From contig CM000152.2 of the NCBI GenBank assembly GCA_000004695.1, forward strand, positions 5,184,001 through 5,248,000: 64,000 nt of DNA, given 5' to 3'. This stretch comes from Dictyostelium discoideum. Lineage: Eukaryota. Numbering within the stretch: the stretch's first letter is position 1; each line of letters starts with the position of its first letter. A program made the translations under genes and the position numbers. The notes beneath the pieces were generated by a model that was not told the origin of the DNA, made no database searches, and was given only the letters and a program-made list of their open reading frames with translations. Shown piece after piece: positions 1 to 61,781 of the stretch.

Positions 1-688
1 AAAAAAAAAAAAAATAACTTGATCAAAAAAAAAAATAATAATAACTTGATCAAAAAATAAAAAAATAAAAATAAATAAAAAAAATAATCAAGCTTTATCA
101 AAATTTTGATAAGTGTTGTTCAAGTCTTGTCTTTTTTTAAGATTACTATTTTTTGTAAAAAAATATCCAAACATTTTAAGAGATTGGTAAATGGTTAGCA
201 ATTTGATAGGTTTTGAAAAAAAAAAAAAAAAAAAAAAAAGAAAAGAAAAAAAAAAAATAAAAAATAATAAATTTTGTACATGTATGAAAATTTCTTAAAG
301 TATTTCGTACTTGTGTCTGAAAGTAGTGTTTTTAAATTAATTTTTTTTCTCTTTAAAAGAGTTTTTTTTTTTTTTTTTTTTTTTTTTCCACATTTCATTT
401 CACAATCTTATTTGTAAATACTAATTTTATTATATTTAAATTAATTTTATCTTTTAAAAATATTTTTTATTGATTTTTTTTTTTTTATTTTTCATTTTTA
501 TTATTTATTTATTTATTGAATATCTATTGATCATTAAGATCAAAAAAAAAAAATATTAAAAAAATAATAACAATAAATAATTAAAAAAAAAAAAAAAAAA
601 AAAAAATTGCAATATTAAATTAGTGTTTTTATTATTATTATTTTTATTATTATTATTATTATTATCATTATTTAATAAATTTATCAGA

Positions 689-787
689 ATGAATTTATTT
701 AGTTCTCTTTCAGGAAAAAGTTCAGGTAGAAGTGGTTCAAAAGGAAGTGCTAATCGTGGTGGTGTTGGTTATGGTTGGGGATCTTAA
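689..787 (+). CDS. Small Gly-rich peptide mini-ORF (32 aa): MNLFSSLSGKSSGRSGSKGSANRGGVGYGWGS. Putative.
   Basis: An isolated GC-richer island in a >2 kb AT desert. ATG in an A-rich context and TAA stop. Shares an NRGGVG motif and identical length with the ORF at 1447. Coding status unproven. Confidence 0.3.
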   Translation: MNLFSSLSGKSSGRSGSKGSANRGGVGYGWGS

Positions 788-1446
788 AAAAAAAAAAAAA
801 AATCAACCAATCAATCAAAAATTATTTTTCGAATAATTAAATAAATTTTTGGTTCACTATTTTAAAAAATATCTTTTTTTTTTTTTCTTAAAAAAAAAAG
901 AAAGAAAGATAAAAAAAAAATCTTTTTTGTAACAATAATATAATTATTTATTTTTTTTTTTTTTTCTCAACATTACTTTTTTTATTACTATTTCCCATTA
1001 TGAAGATCACAAAAAATTATTTTCAAATTTCGCACAATGTTTTATTTTTTTTTTATCAAAATATTATAAAAAAATAATAAAAAAAAATAAAAAAAAAAAA
1101 ATCGCATTCATGGGTTTTGCAAAATATTTTTTAAAATAAAAGCAAAAAAATAAAAAAAAAAAAAAACAGTGGAAAAATAAAAAAAAAAAAATCAAAATAA
1201 AATAAAAAAAAAACTCAATAGAATTTTTTTTTATTTTATTCACTTTATAATCCACAACAAAGAAGCTTCTTTGTAAATAATTTAATTTTCTTATTATGTA
1301 AATAGAAATTCTTTTTATTTATAATTAATTATTAGTATCAAAAACAAATAAAATAAATAAATTAACTTTTTTTCCAACTAAACTTCTCACTCAGATCTTT
1401 TTCTTTTTTTTTTTTAAAAAAAAAAACATAAACCAAAAAAAAAAAA

Positions 1447-1545
1447 ATGGGTTGGGGTTGGGGTAATTGGGGTTGGGGAACAGGTAACCGTGGTGGTGTA
1501 GGTGGCAACGGTAAAAAAGGTGGCCGTAAGGGATGGAGTTCATAA
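1447..1545 (+). CDS. Small Gly/Trp-rich peptide mini-ORF (32 aa): MGWGWGNWGWGTGNRGGVGGNGKKGGRKGWSS. Putative paralog of 689..787.
   Basis: The only other GC-containing island in the first 3 kb. Same strand, same length and same NRGGVG motif as the upstream mini-ORF. The aatcgtggtggtgttggt / aaccgtggtggtgtaggt nucleotide similarity suggests tandem paralogs. Confidence 0.3.
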   Translation: MGWGWGNWGWGTGNRGGVGGNGKKGGRKGWSS

Positions 1546-1667
1546 TCAATTTCTTATTTAATACAACAACAACAATAATTAAACAAAAACTATTTACTTT
1601 TTATTTCAAATATAAATAAAATAACATTGCTTAATTTTCTCTCAAATGATATTATTAATATCCTTTT

Positions 1668-1712
<45 letters not shown>

Positions 1713-3231
1713 GGTGTTTGTGTTTTTTTTTTTTAAAAAATAAAGTCAACCATATATTTAATAAATAAATAAATGTTTTATTTTCATTTTTTTTATTTAT
1801 TTTTGATATGACATTCAATGTTTTTTCCATTTTTTTTTTTTTTTTTTGAATGGTCTTAATTTTGCTTTTTTTTGATTGAATGTGTTTAATTCTTGAAGTG
1901 GTTTGTTTTGGTAAATTTACACTTTGATTATTTGTTTTTTTGATTTTTTTTTTTGATTTTTTTTTTTTATGATTATTTTTATTACTATCAATTTCAAATA
2001 TATGTGAAATAATTAACTGTTTAATAAATAATATCATTTTTTTTTTTTTATTTTATTTTTTTTTATAAATTTCACACACTCACAAAATAAAATTTTATTA
2101 ATTAAATCTCAAGGTTTATGATTGCCCCATTTTTTAAAATTAACCACCAAAGGCTATTTTTGTAAAAAAAAAAAAAAAAAAAAAATAAAATAAAAAAAGA
2201 CAAAATAATAATATCTTTGTAATAGATAAACAACCTTATTTTAATTTCCTTTATATTTTTTTTTTTTTTTTATTATTTTTTTTAAATTTTTTAATTTTAT
2301 GTTTAAAATAAATAAATAAAAAAAAGAAAAAAAAAAAAAAACCAACAATAATTATTTTTTTAATTAATTAACTATTACATTCCAACTTTTTAATATTTGT
2401 TGTCATTGGTAAGTATTTTTTTTTTTATTTTTTTATTTTTTTATTTTTTTATTTTTTATTTTTTATTTATTTATTTTATTTTTTTTTTTTTTTATTAGTT
2501 TTTTAATTCTATTTATATTTATTTTATTTGTTTTTTTTTTTTTTTTCATAAAAAAAAAAATAAAAACAAAACACGTTAAAAAAAAAAAAATAAAAATAAA
2601 AAAAAACAATAAGTGTAACTCATCATCATACAAGTTAATGAGATTATTTTTAAAATCCAAATGGTGTAAACCATTTTGGTTCTGATTCTTAAAAAAAAAA
2701 AAAATTAAAAAAATTAATAAAATTAAAAAAAATTAAAAAAAATCCCACTTCCCACACCATTGCCTTTATGAAATAAATGAATTTTTTTTATTTATTTTTT
2801 TTTTATTTATTTATTTTTTTTTAAATTTTATTTGTTTTTTATTCTTTGAATTTATAACCATTATTTATAAATAAATAAAAGAGAAAAAAAAAAAAAAAAA
2901 AAAGTGAGATAAAGATATATTTTTTAGAACCGGTTAAACAAATTATTTTTTTTATTTTTTTTTTATTTTTTTTTTTTTATTATTTTTTTTTTTTTGGAAA
3001 AATAAAAATTTTTTATTTTTTTATTTTTTTTTTTTTTTTTTTTTTATTATTTATTTTTTTTCTTATCTCAATCATATTATTATAAAAACTTTTTTTTTTT
3101 TATTTTTATTTTTTTTATTTTTTTTTTTTTGGGTAAGGCCAATTTTTAGTTTTTTTAAAAAAAATAAAAATAAAATTTTATATTTTATTTTGTTGACAAT
3201 AAAATTGTTTGATATCTATAGGAATATTACT

Positions 3232-3263
<32 letters not shown>

Positions 3264-3340
3264 CTTAAATAACAGTTGTTATCATTTGTATTTGTAATAT
3301 TAATAATAATAATAATAAAAATAATAATAATAAAAATAAC

Positions 3341-3380
<40 letters not shown>

Positions 3381-3667
3381 CAATTATTGTAAAATCATCG
3401 ATAATCAATCAACTTATATTACCGACCTCACCTCATTTTCGATTATATCAAATCAACTATTTCGACTTAGTTTTTTTTTTTCATCCGAACCATCTTTCTT
3501 TTTTTCACACCCCCCAATTATTTGTAGCATAAAAAAAATAAAAAATAAAAAAAAAAGGTAATTATAATCATGGTTTAATTTATTGTTGTAGTCAATCACA
3601 CTTCATTTCGTCCCACCAAACTTTTTTTTTTGTTTTTTAATTAATTAAATTTTTTGATCCAACGAAA

Positions 3668-3670
3668 TTT

Positions 3671-3720
<50 letters not shown>
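3668..3720. repeat. Poly(A) homopolymer of ~53 nt
   Basis: Seen directly in the sequence. Typical of dictyostelid intergenic DNA. Confidence 0.95.
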
Positions 3721-3724
<4 letters not shown>

Positions 3725-3925
3725 AAAATTATCGACAATTCGGAAGGCAAAAAAAATGAAAAATTAAGAAAATAATAAAAAAAATAAAAGATAATAGTGG
3801 AAGTAAAAAATTAAATATATAAATGGAAATAAAATAAAATAAAATATAGTAAATCCCTTTTTTTTTCTTTGCCAGATATATTCTTCCTTTAATTATGTAT
3901 TCAATAAATATTAAATATTATTTAA

Positions 3926-3956
<31 letters not shown>

Positions 3957-4470
3957 TTTATTTTTATTTTTATTTTTTATTACATTTATAATTATAAATT
4001 TTCACAGTCACACAATATGTGTGATGATACCAAATCGAATAAACCCACACCCTCAACACACTTTTTTTTTTTTTCATTTGGAAAAAGAGAAATAATATAA
4101 AATAAAATAAAATAAAATAAAAGAATAAAATAAAATAAGTAAGATAAAATAAGTAAAATAAATAATAAAAATAAAATAAAATAAAATCATATAAAATTTA
4201 TATATCTTTTTTTTTTTTTTTTTTTTTTTGATTTTTTTTATTTTTTATTTTTTTTTTTTAATTCAAAGATCTTTTTTAAAAAATTATTGAAAAAATTATT
4301 TGTTTTTTTTTTTTTTTATTTTAAAAAATTTTCTTTTTATTTTTATTTTTTTTATTTTTTTATTTTTTTATTTTTTATATTATTCATTTATTGCATGTTA
4401 CCTTTATTTTATTTTTTAAATACTTAGGACAAAATAATAAAAAAAAAATAAAAAAATAAAAAATAAAAAA

Positions 4471-4553
<83 letters not shown>

Positions 4554-5110
4554 TTTTATACATTTCATTAATATATTTAGATAAATATTCATTTATTTAT
4601 AAAAAAATAAGAGGTATGTAATTTATCACATTCAAATTGTATAATATAAAAAAAAAAAAACACCACCTTTATTTGTTTAATTTTTCTTTTTTTTTTTTTT
4701 TTCTCACCAATTCAAACCAAAAAAAAATTATTATCTAAAATACGAAGAAGAAAATATTAGATAACTATTTTTATTTTATTTTTTCTTTTTTTTTTTTTTT
4801 TTTTTTTTGAAATATTAGATAAAAACTATTTCCCCCCACTACCACCATTTTTTTTTAATATTTTCACAAAAAACACTACCACACTCACACCAAATTCGAA
4901 TTTTTGAATTACTTTGATAAATACTACCTTAATAAATTTATTTGTCTAAACAACACCCACTCACTCAATCGTATTCTTAATTATTAAAAAATAAACATTG
5001 TGTTTCATTCAATTAGAGAAAAAAATAAAAATAAAAAATAATAAAATAAAAAAATAAAAAAAATAATATCTAGTAATAAGATATTCTTTTCTATTTATTA
5101 TCTAAACAAT

Positions 5111-5154
<44 letters not shown>

Positions 5155-6181
5155 GGATGGATACTTTATAAATAAATAACAACTTCCCCTTATATAAATA
5201 ATAAAAATAATAATAATAATAAAAAAATAATAAATATAATAATAATAATAATTCAATTATATTATTGTTTTATTATTTTTATTTTTATTTTTTTATTTTT
5301 ATTTTTTTTTTTTATTTTTTTTTTTTTTTCAAAAAAAAATAAAAAATAAAAAAAATAAAAAAAAATAATAAAGGTACACACACTTTACTCCTACAAAACT
5401 ACATTTGGAAAACCAAAAAAAAAAAAAATATCTAAGAATTTTTTTTTTTAAAAAAAAATATTTTATTTTTATTTTTATTTTTATTTTTTTTCAAAAAAAT
5501 TTGTTCTCTCTTTCTTTTTTTTTTTTTTCTTTGTCTTTTTTTTTTTTATTTTATTTTTTTTTTTCACATCATCATCAACCGGAATAAAAAAAAAAAAAAA
5601 TTATATATATATTATTTTTAATTTTAACGCACACCTTCCAAACACACACATACACTTAAATTTTTTTTTTTTTTTTAATATTCCAGTACAATTTTTTTTT
5701 TTTTTAAATTAAAACTTTTTTTATTAAATACTTTTAATTTTTTAAATCTAGAATCCATTTAAATTAAAAAAAAAAAAAAAAAAAAACTTCCAAATTTGTA
5801 CAGGGTTTTTTTAAAAAAAAAAAAAAAAATCAAATTTTTTTATTTTTTTTTAACTTCACCCAATCGACCAACAACAATTTACCAAACTAAAATCACATTT
5901 CACAACACTAACTAAAAAAAAAAAAAAAATCAAATTTTTAAAAAAAAAAAAAATTTTAAAAAAACATATCAATATTTTTATAATAATTATAATAATATCA
6001 ACCAACCAATTTTTTCTTTTTTTTTTTTTTCACTCACTTTTGATCACAACTCAAAAACACTTCAATCTTTTTATAAAAATTTTTATTATTTTTTTATTTT
6101 TTTTACTCAAATAACTTCATAAAATCTCCGCAAAAAAAAATTTAAAAAAACCAAATAAAATTTTTTTTTTTTTTTTAAAAA

Positions 6182-6573
6182 ATGGAATCAAAAGTTGGAT
6201 ATAAACCTATGGTTGATTTTAATAACAACAATAATAATAATAATAATAATAACAACAACAATATGAAACCTGAAGATGCAAACGCTGCCATCGATAATTC
6301 AAATGCCAATGCCAATAGCAATGTAAATGGATACTATTCTTCACCAAGTTCAAATTATTCACATTCTCCAAGATCACCAACATCATCAACAGTTGTAGCT
6401 CAATCAGCCAATGAAGATCACCAACAACCACAACCACCACAACAACAGCAACCACCACAACAACACCAATCCTCACAACCGATGCAAGAAAGTAAACCAA
6501 TCCAAACTCACATACAACACTTAACTGCAAATTCAACTAGTCCACAACAACAACAACAACAACAACAACAACC

Positions 6574-6642
<69 letters not shown>

Positions 6643-7457
6643 TCATCAACAATCACATAACAATAATTTTAATAATAATAATAATAATAATAACAATAGT
6701 AATAATAATAATAATAATAATCAACCATTATCACCACAAAAAATTGAAATTATTAGATCTGACACAACTCAAAATAGCCACTACACAAAATCATCATCAC
6801 CACCAACTCAAGTCACCTCTCCTTCAATATCATCTGCCACAACTCCAACAAATATGTCACCACCACATTCTGACTTGAATAATAATCAAAATAATAATCA
6901 AAATAATAATAATAATAATAATATTAATGTAAAATCATCAAGAGATGAAGGATCTTCATCGTCATCAAAGAGAAGAGAATCTGAAAATGGTAGCAGAGGT
7001 GGAGAAAGTGGTAGCACTTCATCAAGAGATAGAGAACGTGACCGTGATCGTGAAAGAGAACGTGAACGTGAAAGAGATCGTGAACGTGAAAGAGAACGTG
7101 GAAGAGATAGAAGTGATAGAAATGATAGAGGTGATAGAAATGATCACAATAATAATAACAACAACAACAATAATAACAATATCAATAATAATGATGACAG
7201 ATATAACAATAGTAATAACAACAATAGTAATAACAATTTTAATAATAATAATAATAACAACAACATCAACAACAACAACAATAATAATAATAGTGGAAGT
7301 GGCAATAGTGGTGGTAGTGTAAGTAATAATGACAGAGATCGTTCAATCAATGATAGAAGATCTGATGGTCGTAGAAATGTTGGCGGTAATGGTTCACCAG
7401 CTGGTTCATCACCTTCTTTACAATCAATGAATTCAATAATATCATCAAATAAAAAGG

Positions 7458-7488
<31 letters not shown>

Positions 7489-7569
7489 TATTAATAATAT
7501 TAACAACAGCAATAGCAACAATAATTACAATAATAGTAATAATAATAATAATTCAAACTCACAACAACC

Positions 7570-7616
<47 letters not shown>

Positions 7617-8638
7617 TTCAACAACAACAACAATATATTCGTGAACTCCAACAATCGTTGGATAGTCAAACCAAAAATAATCAAGTACTTTCCGATAAGA
7701 TTCGTGATCTTGATGATACATTAAACAAAAAGACAGTGTTATTGTCAAAGTATAGAAAAGCCTTACTCAAGTTTTTCGAAGATCGTGAGGTAGAGGGAGA
7801 AACTGGCTTTGACAATTCTAGTGAAAGATCACTCTCTAGATCGCCATCACGTGAACGTTCTAGATCCCATTCAAGATCACGTTCAAGATCACGTTCAAGA
7901 TCCCATTCTAGATCCATTTCACGTAGTAGATCATCATCACCAATGAATTATGGTAACAATGGTAACAATAACAATGGCTATCAAAGTAGTAACAATAGTA
8001 ATAAATCTTCCTCTTACAATTCACCAGAGAAAGGTGAACTAAAGAGAAAGAGTGGTGGTGACGATGGAAAGGATGTAAAAAGAAGAAAAACTGGTTCAAG
8101 AAGAAATACCCTCTGGACTACCGAAGATGATGAGAAATTCGCTGAAGCTTACAATAAATATGGTAAAAGTTGGAAAACTATTCATAGTCATTTACCTGAT
8201 AAAACTAGAGAACAAGTTCAAAGTCATGGTCAATATTTAATTAGAATTGGTAAATTACAAGATCTTCATAAAGATGGTAGAAGAACTAGACATATAAAAC
8301 CTGATCTTGGATTAGGTAATAATAATAATAATAGCAATAGTAATAGCAATAATAACAATAACAATAACAATAATAATAGTGGTGGAGGTAATAATCATCA
8401 CCATTCATCTCATCATAACCATCATTCACCATCTCACCATAATGATAATAAACACCATCACCATCATAACAACAACAACAATAATAACAATAATAATAAT
8501 AACCACAACAATAATTTAAACATTTTAAATAATTTAACAAATAACAATCATAATAACAATAATAATTATGATTACGATTCCCCACAATCTCAACTTGACT
8601 CACCAAGAGACGATATCGATGATGAAATTTTAATTTAA
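6182..8638 (+). CDS. SHAQKYF-class Myb-like (SANT) DNA-binding protein with polyN/polyQ tracts, an RD/RE dipeptide-repeat region and an RS domain. 818 aa, apparently single exon.
   Basis: Continuous 818-aa ORF with AAAAATGG start context. The Myb repeat LWTTEDDEKFAEAYNKYGKSWKTIHSHLPDKTREQVQSHGQYLIRIGK resembles the CCA1/RVE SHAQKYF class. There is an RDRERDRDRERERERERDRERERERGRDR block and an RSLSRSPSRERSRSHSRSRSRSRSRSHSRSISRSRS RS domain. A CA-rich leader lies upstream at 5560-6180. Confidence 0.8.
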
Positions 8639-9202: not shown

Positions 9203-9814
9203 TTAACTTAAATAAAGCCATTGAGGTGCATTATTATATGTAACTAAATCAGTATCAAAAAGTTCTATAAATTGTTCATTTAATAATTTCACTTTACTTC
9301 CTGCAAATCTTCTATACTCTTCAAAGATTGATGTTAAATTCCAACGTTGTAACTTTCTTAAACAACCAACTACAGTACCTGTTCTATGTCTACCTAAATT
9401 ACACATAATATGAAGTGGATAATTATCTGGATTCAATATAATCTTTAATGCTGAAATTACAATCTCTTCTGATATTGGATTCCAAGGATTTTGATGAGTA
9501 TCCATACCTAAATGTATTAATTCTATATCTTGATCTTCTACAAAATTTTGACTATATTTATTTATTATTATTAGAAAATATATCTATTATTAATGGCAGG
9601 GTATTATTCGATCCACAAAGAAGAGTGATTATTCTTTTTTTTTTTTTTTAAATTTAACTTACAATTGTTGTGAAGGATCATCAGGGGCAAGAAATATAAT
9701 CTTTTTTAATTGTAATTTTTCTAAAAATGGGAAATTTAATTCGTTTGGTTGACCTGATCTATATAAATCATCTGCTACCATACCAAAATTAAGTGGTGGA
9801 ATATGATGTGCCAT
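9203..9814 (-). CDS. Siw14/PFA-DSP family tyrosine-phosphatase-fold protein (inositol pyrophosphate phosphatase type), ~166 aa. CDS = complement(join(9203..9551,9663..9814)).
   Basis: Exon 1 encodes MAHHIPPLNFGMVADDLYRSGQPNELNFPFLEKLQLKKIIFLAPDDPSQQ. Exon 2 contains the CX5R catalytic loop HIMCNLGRHRTGTVVGCLRKLQRWNLTSIFEEYRRFAG. Donor GTAAGT after codon phase 2, acceptor TATAG. The (TGTA)n tract at 9823-9847 lies just upstream of the ATG. Confidence 0.8.
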
Positions 9815-13011: not shown

Positions 13012-13502
13012 CACAAGCATCAGCACTTTTAGATATTATGGGTGATTTACAATTAACACCAACACCACAACAACCACAATCACAATCACAACAAGCATTA
13101 TCACCAACCAACCAAACATCTGTATTACAACCAGTACCACAACCACTCACATTTTTAGTATATCAAAAACATGGATTAAATATTTCATATGAATGCAGCA
13201 AACCACAACCAAATAACCTTTCACTTACCAATATCAATATGGTCATTACAAATACTGGATCATCACCAATCACCAATTTCTCTTTACAAGCAGCTGTACC
13301 AAAATATTTAAAGATTCAATTACTTGCACCATCTTCAACCGTAATTCCACCAAATAATTCTGGTGAAGTTACTCAAGTTTCAAAGGTACTCAATTCACAA
13401 CAGGGTCAAAAACCAATTCTTCTTCGTCTTAAATTAGATTTCCAAATTAATGGTCAACCATTCTCTGATGTTCCCGATACACCATTGCCATCTTTATTCT
13501 AA
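10623..13502 (+). CDS. ap1g1: AP-1 complex gamma subunit (gamma-adaptin), ~895 aa. CDS = join(10623..10942,11045..12361,12452..13502).
   Basis: The N-terminus [28 protein letters not shown]...[26 protein letters not shown] is a near-textbook gamma-adaptin trunk. The splice GG|GTAAGT ... AAG|T restores [14 protein letters not shown] (cf. TNCIKNDLNHSTQF). The second intron CA|GTAAGT ... AAAG|A gives ...[14 protein letters not shown]. The hinge is poly-N/Q and the C-terminus is an ear domain. Confidence 0.9.
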
Positions 13503-14603: not shown

Positions 14604-16690
14604 ATTTTAATTCGAAACACAAACACTAAGGCCACAATCATAGTTTATTATCGGGGAAAGGAGGGGGGGGGGGGTAGTTGATTATCATCAATTTTTTATT
14701 TTTTTATTTTCATATTTTTTAAAAAATAATAAATATTTAAAAAATAAAATAAATTTAATTAAAATAAAATAAAATTTGATAATCAATAACTGAAAATATT
14801 TGTAGAAATATTGTTGATATTTTAAAAAAAAAAAAATCAAAATAAAAATCAAAATCAAAATCAAAATCATAATAAAATCTTTAATATAATAATAATAATT
14901 AATAATCAATAGCAGATAATCAACAATCAATGGATTTTACTTGTATTTATGTTTTTTGATTTTTTCAATTAGTTTTCTTTTTTTTTACCGGTACAAATGA
15001 TATATTAAAAATCAAATCATATCAAATCCAATCATATCAATATTTTAATTAAAAAAATTTACTATGGGATTAATAATTATTATTTGAATTGACTTGTTTT
15101 TTTTTTATTACCTTTTTAAATGAGATATAAAGTAAAACTTTTCAAAAATTAATTTATCTATTCACTTTTTTTTTTTTTTTTTTGTTTTTTTTTCTTTTAT
15201 AAATATTATATTAATTTTTGTTTAGCCTAATAATTTTGTGTCTATAAATAATCACATATAAAACTGATCAGAGGTATAATTTGTGATTGTATAATATTTA
15301 TGTGAGGAAAATTATATAATGTTTTAATTCCAAAAAAAAAAAAAGGAAAAATAAAAAAGAAAAAAAATAATATAAATGTGCCTCAATAATATTAATACCC
15401 AAATTTTTTTTAATTTTAAAAATGTTTTTTTTTTTAAAAAAAAAAAAAATAATAATCAAATTGATTTTTTCAGAGTTGTAAATTGTAATTCTACACTAAA
15501 ATTCTTAAATTTGGACTCATTTTGAATAAAACCCACATTAAAATTATTTTTTTAAAAAAAATTCATCCCAATAGTGAAACACACTCACAAAAACAATTGT
15601 GAATTTATTATCGATACTGGGCAGATTTACAAAAATTAAAAAAAAAATAAAAATTCTGAAAAAAAAAAATTAAAAAAAATAAATGCAATTAAAGCACACC
15701 ACAAGCAAAAAAAAAAAAAAAAAAAAACATTTTAAATAAATTTTTATTATAACCAAAACTATCAATCACTAATAAAGCACCCCACTAATCAAAAAATAAA
15801 AAATAAAAAAAAAAAAAAAAAATGACAAAACTGAATTTGGTTGGAGGAGAGTTTATTTTTTTTAAAATTGGTTTTGGGGGTAAAAGTTTAAAATTGGAAA
15901 TATTTTTTATTAAAATAGAAATTTATTTTTATTAATTAAATTTTTGTGGGGAGTTTGGTGAAAGTGCCTCTAAATTATTTAAACTATTCAATTAATTGAA
16001 AATTAAAAATAAAACAAATTTTATTTTTTTTTAATTTATTTTTATTTTTTTTAAAAAAAATTTTTTGAATTTGATTGTTATTGGGTGATTTTGATCTCAA
16101 AATAACCAATTGATGATTGGAATTTTGCTAATCTAAATTATCATCGTCTTATTTTGATCTCAGAAAAATAAATTATGATTAGAAAAATTATTTTTAAAAT
16201 CTTTTTTTTTACACACACACCACATCACCTTTAAACAAAACCCACGCAACACACACCACTCACACAATAACTAATGATTAGGTGAATTTTAATAACATTT
16301 CAAAGCTCTTTTTCTCTATTTTTATTTTTTTTATTTTTTTTATTTTTTTTTTAATAGGTGCATTCACAAAATAACATGTGGAGTTTAAAAAAAAAAATAA
16401 AAAAAAAAAAAACAATTTATTTTATTGTTTGAATTTTCTTAATCATTATTACCGAAACAAAAACTTTTAATAGCTTCCCAGTCAATCCTAAAAAAAGGAA
16501 ATTAATTCTTTTAATTTAGATTTTCAATTTTTTAAAAAAAATATAAATAGTTTAAAATTTTTTTTTTTTTATTATTAATTCAAAACATTTTTAAATAAAT
16601 AAATAAATAAATATAAATAAATATAAATATAAATATAAATATAAATAAATAAATAATTTTATTTTTAAAAAAAAATTAAATATATATATA

Positions 16691-42168: not shown

Positions 42169-42351
42169 TTAAGAAAAATTTGTTAAAGAACCAAATAATG
42201 ATGGTGGTTGTACATTTGTTACTGTTACAGCATTATTATTTAAAGATCTACTAAAATTTTTAATAGTTTTATCATTTAAACCAAGTTCAGCATTTAAAGA
42301 AATAATAGTTGCTTTCTTTTTATTTGATAAACCAGGAAACATATTTCCCAT
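42169..42351 (-). CDS. Small ORF, 60 aa (MGNMFPGLSNKKKATIISLNAELGLNDKTIKNF...); hypothetical
   Basis: Isolated ORF with dictyostelid-like codon usage between AT-rich spacers. No homology recognised. Confidence 0.3.
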   Translation of the reverse strand: MGNMFPGLSNKKKATIISLNAELGLNDKTIKNFSRSLNNNAVTVTNVQPPSLFGSLTNFS

Positions 42352-43596: not shown

Positions 43597-43892
43597 TTAG
43601 AATTTCTTTTTATATAGAGCGACAATATTTCCATTTTTATCAACAATAATTGGTGCACCTGGCAAAGCAGGATCCCATGTGAATGCAACACAATTTGATG
43701 TTTGAGCTAGACTTGTACTTAAACCATCGTATACTGTTGTGGAAAAATTAATTGATTTTGAATTACCAGTCATTGACATTAATGATTCTATAAAAAAAAT
43801 AAAAATTTTATTATTTGGAAGATTAATATTAAAAAATAAAAAATAAAAATAAAAAAAAGAAATAAAAAAGAACACTTACTTAAAATTGACAT
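43597..43892 (-). CDS. Small protein, hypothetical (~67 aa). CDS = complement(join(43597..43787,43880..43892)).
   Basis: A micro-exon ATGTCAATTTTAA with GTAAGT donor joined to a TTTTTTATAG| acceptor gives MSILKSLMSMTGNSKSINFSTTVYDGLSTSLAQTSNCVAFTWDPALPGAPIIVDKNGNIVALYKKKF*. Confidence 0.35.
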
Positions 43893-53033: not shown

Positions 53034-53319
53034 GTTAATAATTAATAAATTAATAAATTTTTACTAATAATTAATTTAATAATTAATTATTTAATAATAG
53101 GTTGATGGACATTTATATGAATTAGATGGTAGAAAACCATTTGCAATTAATCATGGTGAATCAAGTGCTGAAACATTATTAAAAGATACAGCTAATGTTT
53201 TACAAAAGATGATTGATGAAGATCCAAAAGAAATTAGATTTAATTTAATGGGTTTGGTTAAAAAACCAAATGAAGAAAGTGAGGAAGAAGAAGAAAAAGA
53301 AAAAGAAGAAACAAAATAA
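52311..53319 (+). CDS. Ubiquitin C-terminal hydrolase (UCH-L3-type, peptidase C12), ~255 aa. CDS = join(52311..52517,52624..52965,53101..53319).
   Basis: [20 protein letters not shown]...[18 protein letters not shown]|[11 protein letters not shown]...[21 protein letters not shown]...LHFVSFVH|[19 protein letters not shown] matches UCHL3 ([57 protein letters not shown]). Donors GTATGT (x2). Intron 2 contains (AAT)~20. Confidence 0.9.
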
Positions 53320-60281: not shown

Positions 60282-61781
60282 TAAAATAAAAATTTATTTA
60301 TATTTATTAATAAAACAATTAAATTTGACACTTTTTTTTTTTTTTTTTTTAACGATTTAATTTTATTTATTTTTAATAAGAATACAGTATATAAAAATAG
60401 ATCACTAGGAAATAATACAAAATTATATAAAAAAATAAAAAAACTGTTTTGGACTTTTTTTTTTTTTTTTTTTATTTATAAGGTAATAATTTCATTTTGA
60501 AATTTAATTATTTATAGTTCATTTTTTGCAATTGTTTTTATTTTTGGTAAAATAACAATTTTATCAATAGATTGTCCTTCAAAAAAAAAAATTAAAAAAA
60601 AATTAAAATTAATTTTATTTTCAAAACAATATTAAGCTACAGATTAAATAATAACAAAGCAAATCTAGAATAGTTAGAATATTAAAAAATAAATAGTTAA
60701 AAAGAAATTTTTTTTTTTTAATTAAGATATCACAACAACTACAGTTAGTAATTATAATTTGAAAGACGCATGCAATTTGAAGACAAAGTATCACATTATA
60801 CGATACTTAATTTTGTTATCATATCATTCAGTAACACGTTTATATAATAAATGGCAATGTTATACATACATATATATTAGAGATAAAATTAAATTATAAA
60901 ATAAATAAATTGCAATAACGACACATTTTTATGAATTATATATATGATATAAATAATTAATTAAATAAATAAAGATAATTTATAAAATAAATAATTTAAT
61001 TATAAAATAACCGATAAAATAAATAATCATTAAATTATAAATTAAATAAATTATAATAACGACATGTAAATGAAAGTATATTAAATAAATAAATAATAAT
61101 TTATTTAAAAAATAATTTAATAATCAAATAATTTAGTATATAAATAATTTTAAAACCAAATGACTTTGAAAAAAAAAAATTATAAATAGTTTAGTAAATA
61201 AATAGTTTAATAAACAAATAATTCAATAAATAATAGTTTTGAGCAACAACAAATAAATTATATTGTAATAAATTATATTACATTCTCAAAGATGAACGAT
61301 CAAAAAAATATTTCAATCAATGAAGCTATCAAGCAATTTCCACAAGAATTCAACAATCGTATTGGATTCGAATTAAATAGAATAAACACCAACCTTAGAT
61401 TCTCACATTTCGAGGAACAAAGAGGGAATATGTTTTTTTTAATGTCAAATTTGAATGTTTGAAAAAATAAAATTAAAAAAAAAAAAAAAAAAAAAAACAA
61501 ATAAAATATTCCACATTTAATTCATTTATTATTTGGATTTAAAAGAAAAAATAATAAAAAATTAAAGAAAAAAAAAGAATTCAATTCAATACAATCAATT
61601 TTTATATTAAAAATATATTAAATCAACTGTGTAAAAAAAAAAAAAAAAATTAAAAATAAAAATGAAAAAAAATTATAAAAAAAAAAAAAAAAAAAAAACC
61701 TTTTAAAATAATCCAGATTTAATTCATTTATTATTTAATTTGAAAACTTTAATAAAAAATAAAAATCTCATATGTCGTTTT

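Follow-up and report, generated by a model that had tools for sequence, protein, structure and literature searches.

Are two short GC-rich islands on chromosome 3 of Dictyostelium discoideum AX4 genes and, if so, what do they encode? The islands lie near the start of a 64-kb stretch of DNA (chr3:5,184,001-5,248,000, plus strand; 'the window', in which positions are counted from the first letter). Each holds an open reading frame (ORF) made up of a 32-codon coding sequence (CDS) that begins with ATG and is followed by TAA: ORF1 at 689-787 (+), with the peptide MNLFSSLSGKSSGRSGSKGSANRGGVGYGWGS, and ORF2 at 1447-1545 (+), with the peptide MGWGWGNWGWGTGNRGGVGGNGKKGGRKGWSS. A first-pass annotation, made from the DNA letters, had correctly taken the source for a dictyostelid. 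It had described the pair as same-strand mini-ORFs of 32 aa that have the sequence NRGGVG in common, and both are indeed present in this form, with their ATGs 758 bp apart. They were also correctly recognized as GC islands, since they coincide with the two highest GC peaks in 1-6200 (0.36 at 701-800 and 0.51 at 1451-1550, in segments of 100 nt; all others ≤ 0.30). The window has 270 ATG ORFs that are 20-60 aa long; ORF2 is the richest of them in glycine (0.44), ORF1 comes second (0.28) and the third reaches 0.14. Our favoured explanation, to which we give an even chance, is that both islands are real genes of D. discoideum, separate from each other, very small and protein-coding. ORF1 is already known, while ORF2 is a modest new candidate.

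Results

ORF1 is the annotated gene DDB_G0295769

The product of ORF1 is identical to the hypothetical protein DDB_G0295769 (XP_002649147.1, UniProt C7G021). The suggestion that the two could be unannotated small ORFs is therefore wrong for ORF1 but stands for ORF2, which is missing from protein collections. Expression values for DDB_G0295769 were taken from the 'Cup' sheet of supplementary file 5 of Kin et al. (2018; PMC6198379). The Parikh 2010 series, which runs from 0 to 24 h in 4-h steps, gives 18.3, 38.9, 11.0, 15.7, 0, 6.3 and 8.3, with 2.1 in prespore and 5.3 in prestalk cells of the slug (PMC6198379). The Kin 2018 values, in transcripts per million (TPM), are 7.0 for vegetative cells, 4.6 for cup, 0.96 for stalk and 0.16 for spore (PMC6198379). 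These data show that ORF1 is transcribed at a low level, mainly during growth and early starvation, with its peak at 0-4 h. RNA-seq over the islands had been proposed as a check on the mini-ORFs; the ORF1 gene model has reads, but a record for ORF2 was not found. The literature adds little: neither the identifier DDB_G0295769 nor either peptide string occurs in the main texts of the papers searched, and the gene is not listed in the supplements of a paper on lineage-specific genes (PMC8535579). The 200 nt upstream of ORF1 contain no ATG. A candidate polyadenylation signal, AATAAA, identified by its pattern only, is located at 840-845 (+), 53 nt past the stop.

Both frames carry a coding signature

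Codon usage was scored as a log-likelihood ratio (LLR), trained on the 18 long ORFs of the window against intergenic trinucleotides. In the proposed frame ORF1 reaches +32.5 bits, and none of its five other frames exceeds +7.6; for ORF2 the figures are +37.0 and +9.0 bits. Per codon this corresponds to 1.02 (ORF1) and 1.16 (ORF2, the highest value in the window), whereas the 18 training genes range from 0.29 to 0.92; both values exceed those of every other small intergenic ATG ORF. When only the choice between synonymous codons is scored, the values are still positive (+5.1 bits for ORF1 and +10.0 bits for ORF2). Glycine is encoded by GGT (six times) and GGA (three times) in ORF1 and by GGT (10), GGA (two) and GGC (two) in ORF2; GGG is used in neither. 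This choice agrees with that of the local long ORFs (267 GGT, 59 GGA, 17 GGC and 4 GGG). The GC content at codon positions 1, 2 and 3 is 0.39, 0.67 and 0.06 in ORF1 and 0.52, 0.73 and 0.33 in ORF2. A coding signature, consisting of codon usage and three-base periodicity, is thus found in both ORFs and is specific to the proposed frames. Together with the annotation and transcription of ORF1, this supports the interpretation of the islands as small ORFs.

The ATG and the TAA are flush with the ends of both islands. At random positions in the AT-rich DNA of the window, an ATG lies directly upstream in 0.9% of cases, an ATG within eight codons upstream and before any stop in 5.2%, and a stop as the next codon in 7.9%. 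We also considered coding by the minus strand of the ORF2 island, which would give a Pro/Gln-rich product. It was rejected: the minus-strand frames reach at most +9 bits, have no ATG and need the codons CCC, which is rare in Dictyostelium, and CGG, which is rare in the long ORFs of the window.

ORF2 is a candidate for a missing annotation

The exact sequence of the ORF2 product is not in a collection of ∼ 15 billion proteins, and there is no called gene with that product on record. A look-up of exact products for contigs that encode them returned no records for either peptide. No long non-coding RNA (lncRNA) covers ORF1 or ORF2 among the entries listed in the supplements of PMC5295588. The sole ATG within 200 nt upstream of ORF2 is at position 1296. 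A further AATAAA, 70 nt past the ORF2 stop at 1615-1620 (+), is a putative polyadenylation signal and lies within the neighbouring gene model DDB_G0282071. Trypsin would release the peptide MGWGWGNWGWGTGNR from the ORF2 product. We infer that ORF2, too, is a small gene, similar in general kind to ORF1 but lacking from the deposited annotation; a missing annotation is plausible.

A G-quadruplex motif lies within ORF2

ORF2 contains a four-tract G-quadruplex (G4) motif, GGGGTTGGGGTAATTGGGGTTGGGG, at 1454-1478 (+; chr3:5185454-5185478), which spans codons 3-11 and encodes WGWGNWGWG. The motif, which the first-pass annotation had not mentioned, occupies the 5' third of the ORF and is among the strongest of its kind in the D. 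discoideum genome. Its layout, GGGG-TT-GGGG-TAATT-GGGG-TT-GGGG, is that of a canonical intramolecular G-quadruplex (runs of 3-4 or more G, loops of 1-7 nt), and its G4Hunter score is 2.56. Motifs with four runs of at least three G occur only twice in the window, here and at 14653-14674 (+), where the second G4-prone tract, GGGGAAAGGAGGGGGGGGGGGG, has a G4Hunter score of 2.76. Folding of the RNA from 1425 to 1560 is predicted to yield -51.0 kcal/mol when a G-quadruplex is allowed and -21.2 kcal/mol when it is not, so that the predicted quadruplex is worth ∼ 30 kcal/mol. It begins 7 nt after the AUG of ORF2.

The motif has been catalogued before. It is a literal entry in the list of Saad et al. 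(2019; PMC6511855, Table S1a), one of 23 AX4 sequences that have several runs of four or more G, where it is given without gene context or ORF. The biophysical work of that study covered 14 sequences (PMC6511855); the ORF2 motif is outside them, and its folding is predicted here. The crystallized four-quartet sequence 19wt (Guedin et al., 2018; PMC6007418) has a G4Hunter score of 2.54, comparable to that of the ORF2 motif. At a threshold of 2.0, the relative density of G4-prone motifs is 2.03 in intergenic DNA (enriched) and 0.28 in CDS (depleted) (PMC6511855). The ORF2 motif lies on the sense strand within a candidate CDS, a class depleted of G4. ORF2 is thus an uncommon G4 in coding sequence or, alternatively, a non-coding G4 whose frame is open by chance. 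Catalogued (GGGGTT)n/(CCCCAA)n tracts are found at chr1:1040148, chr2:8326099, chr3:1611836, chr5:2677402 and chr6:1290182 (PMC6511855); translated in the frame GGT-TGG, such tracts would specify (GW)n.

In ORF2 the four Trp-Gly pairs make the motif unavoidable, because Trp is encoded by TGG only and Gly by GGN, so that each pair reads TGGGGN. The peptide and the quadruplex cannot be separated by synonymous change. The coupling of (WG)n coding to a catalogued G-quadruplex motif seems to have gone unremarked until now.

The two frames have one short block in common

The first-pass annotation had called the two ORFs paralogous, an interpretation that is weakly supported. A block of ORF1 at 743-769 (+; GGAAGTGCTAATCGTGGTGGTGTTGGT, encoding GSANRGGVG) and a block of ORF2 at 1477-1503 (+; GGAACAGGTAACCGTGGTGGTGTAGGT, encoding GTGNRGGVG) form a family of direct repeats that is in frame, with 22 of 27 nt identical (81%) and the consensus G[ST][AG]NRGGVG; tblastn within the window gives E = 0.1. 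Within NRGGVG there are two nucleotide differences (AAT/AAC and GTT/GTA), both of which are synonymous, and an exact 6-mer common to the two peptides arises in 0.75% of composition-preserving shuffles. On the other hand, the local alignment of the peptides scores 41, which 23% of such shuffles reach, and the flanks of the two ORFs have only A/T runs in common. What remains of the paralogy claim is thus one in-frame block of 9 aa (27 nt), by which a common ancestry of ORF1 and ORF2 is possible. A segmental duplication of the two loci was considered and rejected on the evidence of the flanks.

Searches for relatives gave little. In a protein homology search with the two peptides concatenated (64 aa), two candidates shared words with the query and neither scored. 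Pfam (E ≤ 10) and the sequences of the PDB contain no match to either peptide. A degenerate DNA pattern for WGWGNWGWG matched 11 sites in JGI metagenomes, none of them in a short ATG-to-stop peptide like ORF2; the 11 are unrelated low-complexity or larger proteins on contigs of 23-68% GC. ORF1 and ORF2 appear to be lineage-restricted and probably arose from simple repeats of the GGT/GGTTGG type.

Properties of the peptides and a possible mode of action

The ORF1 peptide has a mass of 3.1 kDa, an isoelectric point (pI) of 11.1, a net charge of +3.5, a grand average of hydropathy (GRAVY) of -0.58 and 28% Gly. The corresponding values for the ORF2 peptide are 3.3 kDa, 12.0, +4.5, -1.17 and 44% (14 Gly, in addition to six Trp). 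On inspection, neither N-terminus (MNLFSSLSGKSS, MGWGWGNWGWGT) contains a hydrophobic core of at least seven residues or a classical signal peptide. AlphaFold2 models built from single sequences are coils with no secondary structure, a predicted local distance difference test score (pLDDT) of 61-66 (ORF2, 61) and a predicted template modelling score (pTM) of 0.12-0.15. Such low-confidence coils are consistent with disorder but otherwise uninformative.

If both genes are real, each would be a single exon with its own transcript and would yield a basic peptide of ∼ 3 kDa with 28-44% Gly. Since neither has a signal peptide, a transmembrane segment or predicted secondary structure, the products would most likely be intracellular disordered micropeptides. 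We speculate that they act by binding a partner; in ORF2 the contacts would be made by the tryptophans that are flanked by Gly and by the Lys/Arg tail. A very stable RNA G-quadruplex that starts 7 nt after the AUG would be part of the ORF2 mRNA and should slow or gate its translation, and the same motif could form on the non-template DNA strand.

Discussion

Weighing the explanations

Several observations weigh against two small genes. A HMMER search of 1.84 billion representative sequences (64-aa concatenation as query, E ≤ 0.001) recovered only ORF1 itself, although the absence of annotated homologues is uninformative for peptides this small, which are rarely annotated. A (GGT)n/(GGTTGG)n microsatellite can yield GGT-rich codon usage without selection for translation, and the expansion of a simple GGT repeat mimics preferred codons in one frame out of three. 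Tracts of the (GGGGTT)n type are present at several other AX4 loci (PMC6511855). ORF1, a gene model of 99 nt, has low and noisy expression, with 0 at 16 h. No transcript evidence was found for ORF2, which is absent from the catalogue of 621 lncRNAs, among the entries listed. A ribosome-profiling or small-ORF resource for Dictyostelium was not found in the searched literature, and no sign that either ORF is translated came to light. The binding of a partner is a mechanism read from composition alone.

In the main rival explanation, the ORF2 island is first and foremost a G-quadruplex, of DNA or RNA, or a simple repeat of the (GGGGTT)n type, and its frame is incidental. Such an element could be structural or regulatory, acting in transcription, in replication or on chromatin at the boundary of the region upstream of mybE, or it could have no role. 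The place of the motif among the 23 four-G-run sequences, the perfect (GGGGTT)n/(CCCCAA)n tracts at several other loci and the distribution of G4-prone motifs (intergenic 2.03, CDS 0.28) all agree with this view, as do the lack of an annotated ORF2 protein and of homologues in the HMMER search. However, the motif accounts for 25 of 99 nt, and the other two-thirds are not G4-prone yet are GC-rich, open and rich in preferred codons. The ATG and TAA are flush with the island, and NRGGVG, which lies outside the G4, is common in frame to ORF2 and an annotated gene. We regard this rival as serious but rather unlikely. Another view, which we consider unlikely, is that both ORFs are young and functionless, GGT/GGTTGG repeats that are open by chance and transcribed as noise, with the annotation of ORF1 going back to a stray cDNA. 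Their orphan status, low expression and repeat-like sequences are what would be expected in that case, but the islands are both framed by ATG and TAA, the codon GGG is absent and the differences within NRGGVG are synonymous, albeit in small samples.

The composition of the peptides had also suggested antimicrobial or secreted products, and they are indeed cationic (pI 11-12, net charge +3.5 and +4.5), with many Gly and aromatic residues, which recalls glycine-rich antimicrobial peptides known from nematodes, arachnids and plants. On this reading the ORFs would encode secreted Gly/Trp-rich peptides with an antimicrobial or signalling role. Unconventional export without a leader occurs for some Dictyostelium proteins, for example AcbA/SDF-2. 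Nevertheless, neither N-terminus (MNLFSSLSGK, MGWGWGNWGW) has a hydrophobic signal, no antimicrobial-peptide family or other Pfam family was matched, and the expression of ORF1, which is low, peaks at 0-4 h of starvation and amounts to ∼ 7 TPM in feeding cells, differs from that expected of a major effector against bacterial prey. The secreted reading is thus weakened on two points, signal sequence and expression, and we think it quite improbable. That the islands are genes for small non-coding RNAs, or belong as exons to a larger spliced gene, is scarcely credible. Structured RNAs do typically stand out as GC-rich islands from AT-rich DNA, and a CAG just before the ORF1 ATG is a possible splice acceptor. 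However, the best Rfam match is a microRNA model that scores 28 bits, where the gathering score is 62, a tRNA scan found no tRNAs, and the upstream element WCCCAYAA (DUSE) of Dictyostelium non-coding RNAs is not nearby, the closest DUSE-like match being at 13036. The non-coding or regulatory alternative raised at the outset thus finds no support in Rfam or in this upstream element. The strong three-base periodicity and the frame-specific codons also argue against it, and there is no neighbouring coding segment to which an exon could be spliced.

If, as we favour, ORF2 is a real gene, the annotation of a model organism misses a peptide gene beside a gene model that looks non-coding. ORF2 would also be a natural case in which a (WG)n peptide motif and a four-tract G-quadruplex are inseparable by synonymous change. 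It raises the question of whether 'intergenic' G4 motifs of AT-rich genomes are sometimes coding, and it could serve to test G4-gated translation in an organism with only ∼ 250-1000 G4 motifs. Both ORFs would be tractable cases for studying the function of orphan micropeptides; if they are repeat-derived noise, the finding is an ordinary one.

The surrounding sequence

The average intergenic distance in the D. discoideum genome is ∼ 700 bp (PMC5295588, citing Eichinger, 2005). The statement of the first-pass annotation that 1-6180 lacks a conventional gene is true in substance, but the annotation places three features there. The gene model DDB_G0282071 (1590-2037, -) is convergent with ORF2 and ends 45 bp from its stop. 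Its 131-codon ORF has 14% GC, runs of Lys and Phe and a codon LLR of -41.9 bits, a Pfam scan of it gave sub-threshold noise only, and it looks non-coding. Unstranded reads credited to DDB_G0282071 could stem from the 3' untranslated region of ORF2. The other two features are the lncRNAs CUFF_2859_1 (3053-4202, -) and CUFF_2860_1 (4487-5026, -) (Rosengarten, 2017; PMC5295588), which occupy the 4.1-kb region upstream of mybE; the expression of CUFF_2860_1 correlates with that of mybE (r = 0.83; PMC5295588). Minor GC bumps at ∼ 3400-3600, 4000-4100 and 4800-5000 fall within the two lncRNAs. The plus strand of this region is C-rich, with motifs of the CA/CCCAC type and a GC skew down to -0.9.

DDB_G0281969, named mybE by Kin et al. 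(2018; PMC6198379), follows at 6182-8638 (+; chr3:5190182-5192638) as an ORF of 818 codons that has exactly the annotated coordinates (PMC5295588). The exact translation of this uninterrupted ORF is not in the collection of ∼ 15 billion proteins; the deposited product may differ by an intron, another start or another version. The following may be a factor-binding site: TAACTTGATCAA, which occurs twice (14-26 and 41-53, +, 27 nt apart); the palindrome TTGATCattaaGATCAA at 527-543, ∼ 150 nt upstream of the ORF1 ATG; and CTTGATCAA, of which the window holds four copies (1.0 expected; 4 of 100 shuffles reach four). Elsewhere in the window, five further small ATG ORFs lie outside the long ORFs, at 9659-9814 (-), 42169-42351 (-), 43597-43779 (-), 53209-53319 (+) and 61292-61462 (+). 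They have codon LLRs of 27-46 bits, none is glycine-rich, and each is probably an exon of a spliced gene, not an independent small ORF.

Comparison with known systems

Cationic antimicrobial peptides rich in Gly and aromatic residues include NLP-29/CNC of Caenorhabditis elegans, the acanthoscurrins of spiders and the shepherins of plants. The ORF1 and ORF2 peptides resemble them in being small, Gly-rich and cationic, with Trp or Tyr set among Gly. However, the known families are made with signal peptides that are cleaved off, and infection induces them, whereas ORF1 and ORF2 lack a signal peptide, and a sequence relationship was undetectable with Pfam or HMMER. The hssA/2C/7E (HssA/B-like) proteins are, like ORF1 and ORF2, small, Gly/Ser-rich, species-restricted Dictyostelium proteins. 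The start of ORF1, MNLFSSLS, loosely recalls their N-termini, but they are about three times as long. Membership of the family is not borne out, as there is no Pfam match at E ≤ 10 and the only D. discoideum match in HMMER is ORF1 itself. One hssA/2C/7E member reaches thousands of expression units in the table of Kin et al. (PMC6198379), compared with 0-39 for ORF1.

A further resemblance is to the Ago-hooks, the Argonaute-binding GW/WG motifs of GW182, NRPE1 and SPT5-like (Karlowski et al., 2010; PMC2910046). All six Trp of ORF2 are adjacent to Gly, including W3, W5, W8, W10 and W30, and they sit in a Gly/Asn/Ser-rich segment that is predicted to be unstructured, so that the motif features of a hook are present. 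It is conceivable, though a long shot, that ORF2 is the first recognized free Trp-Gly 'hook' micropeptide, that G4 helicases or ligands would control its output through a four-quartet RNA G-quadruplex directly behind the AUG, and that it would compete for the Trp pockets of the Dictyostelium Argonautes or of another GW reader. In that case, mini-genes for GW peptides, and not non-coding G4 elements, might be what some further (GGGGTT)n motifs of AX4 represent. Known Ago-hooks are long domains of large scaffold proteins, whereas ORF2, a candidate from its sequence only, would be a free peptide of 32 aa with its Trp spaced 2-3 residues apart, much tighter than in Ago-hooks.

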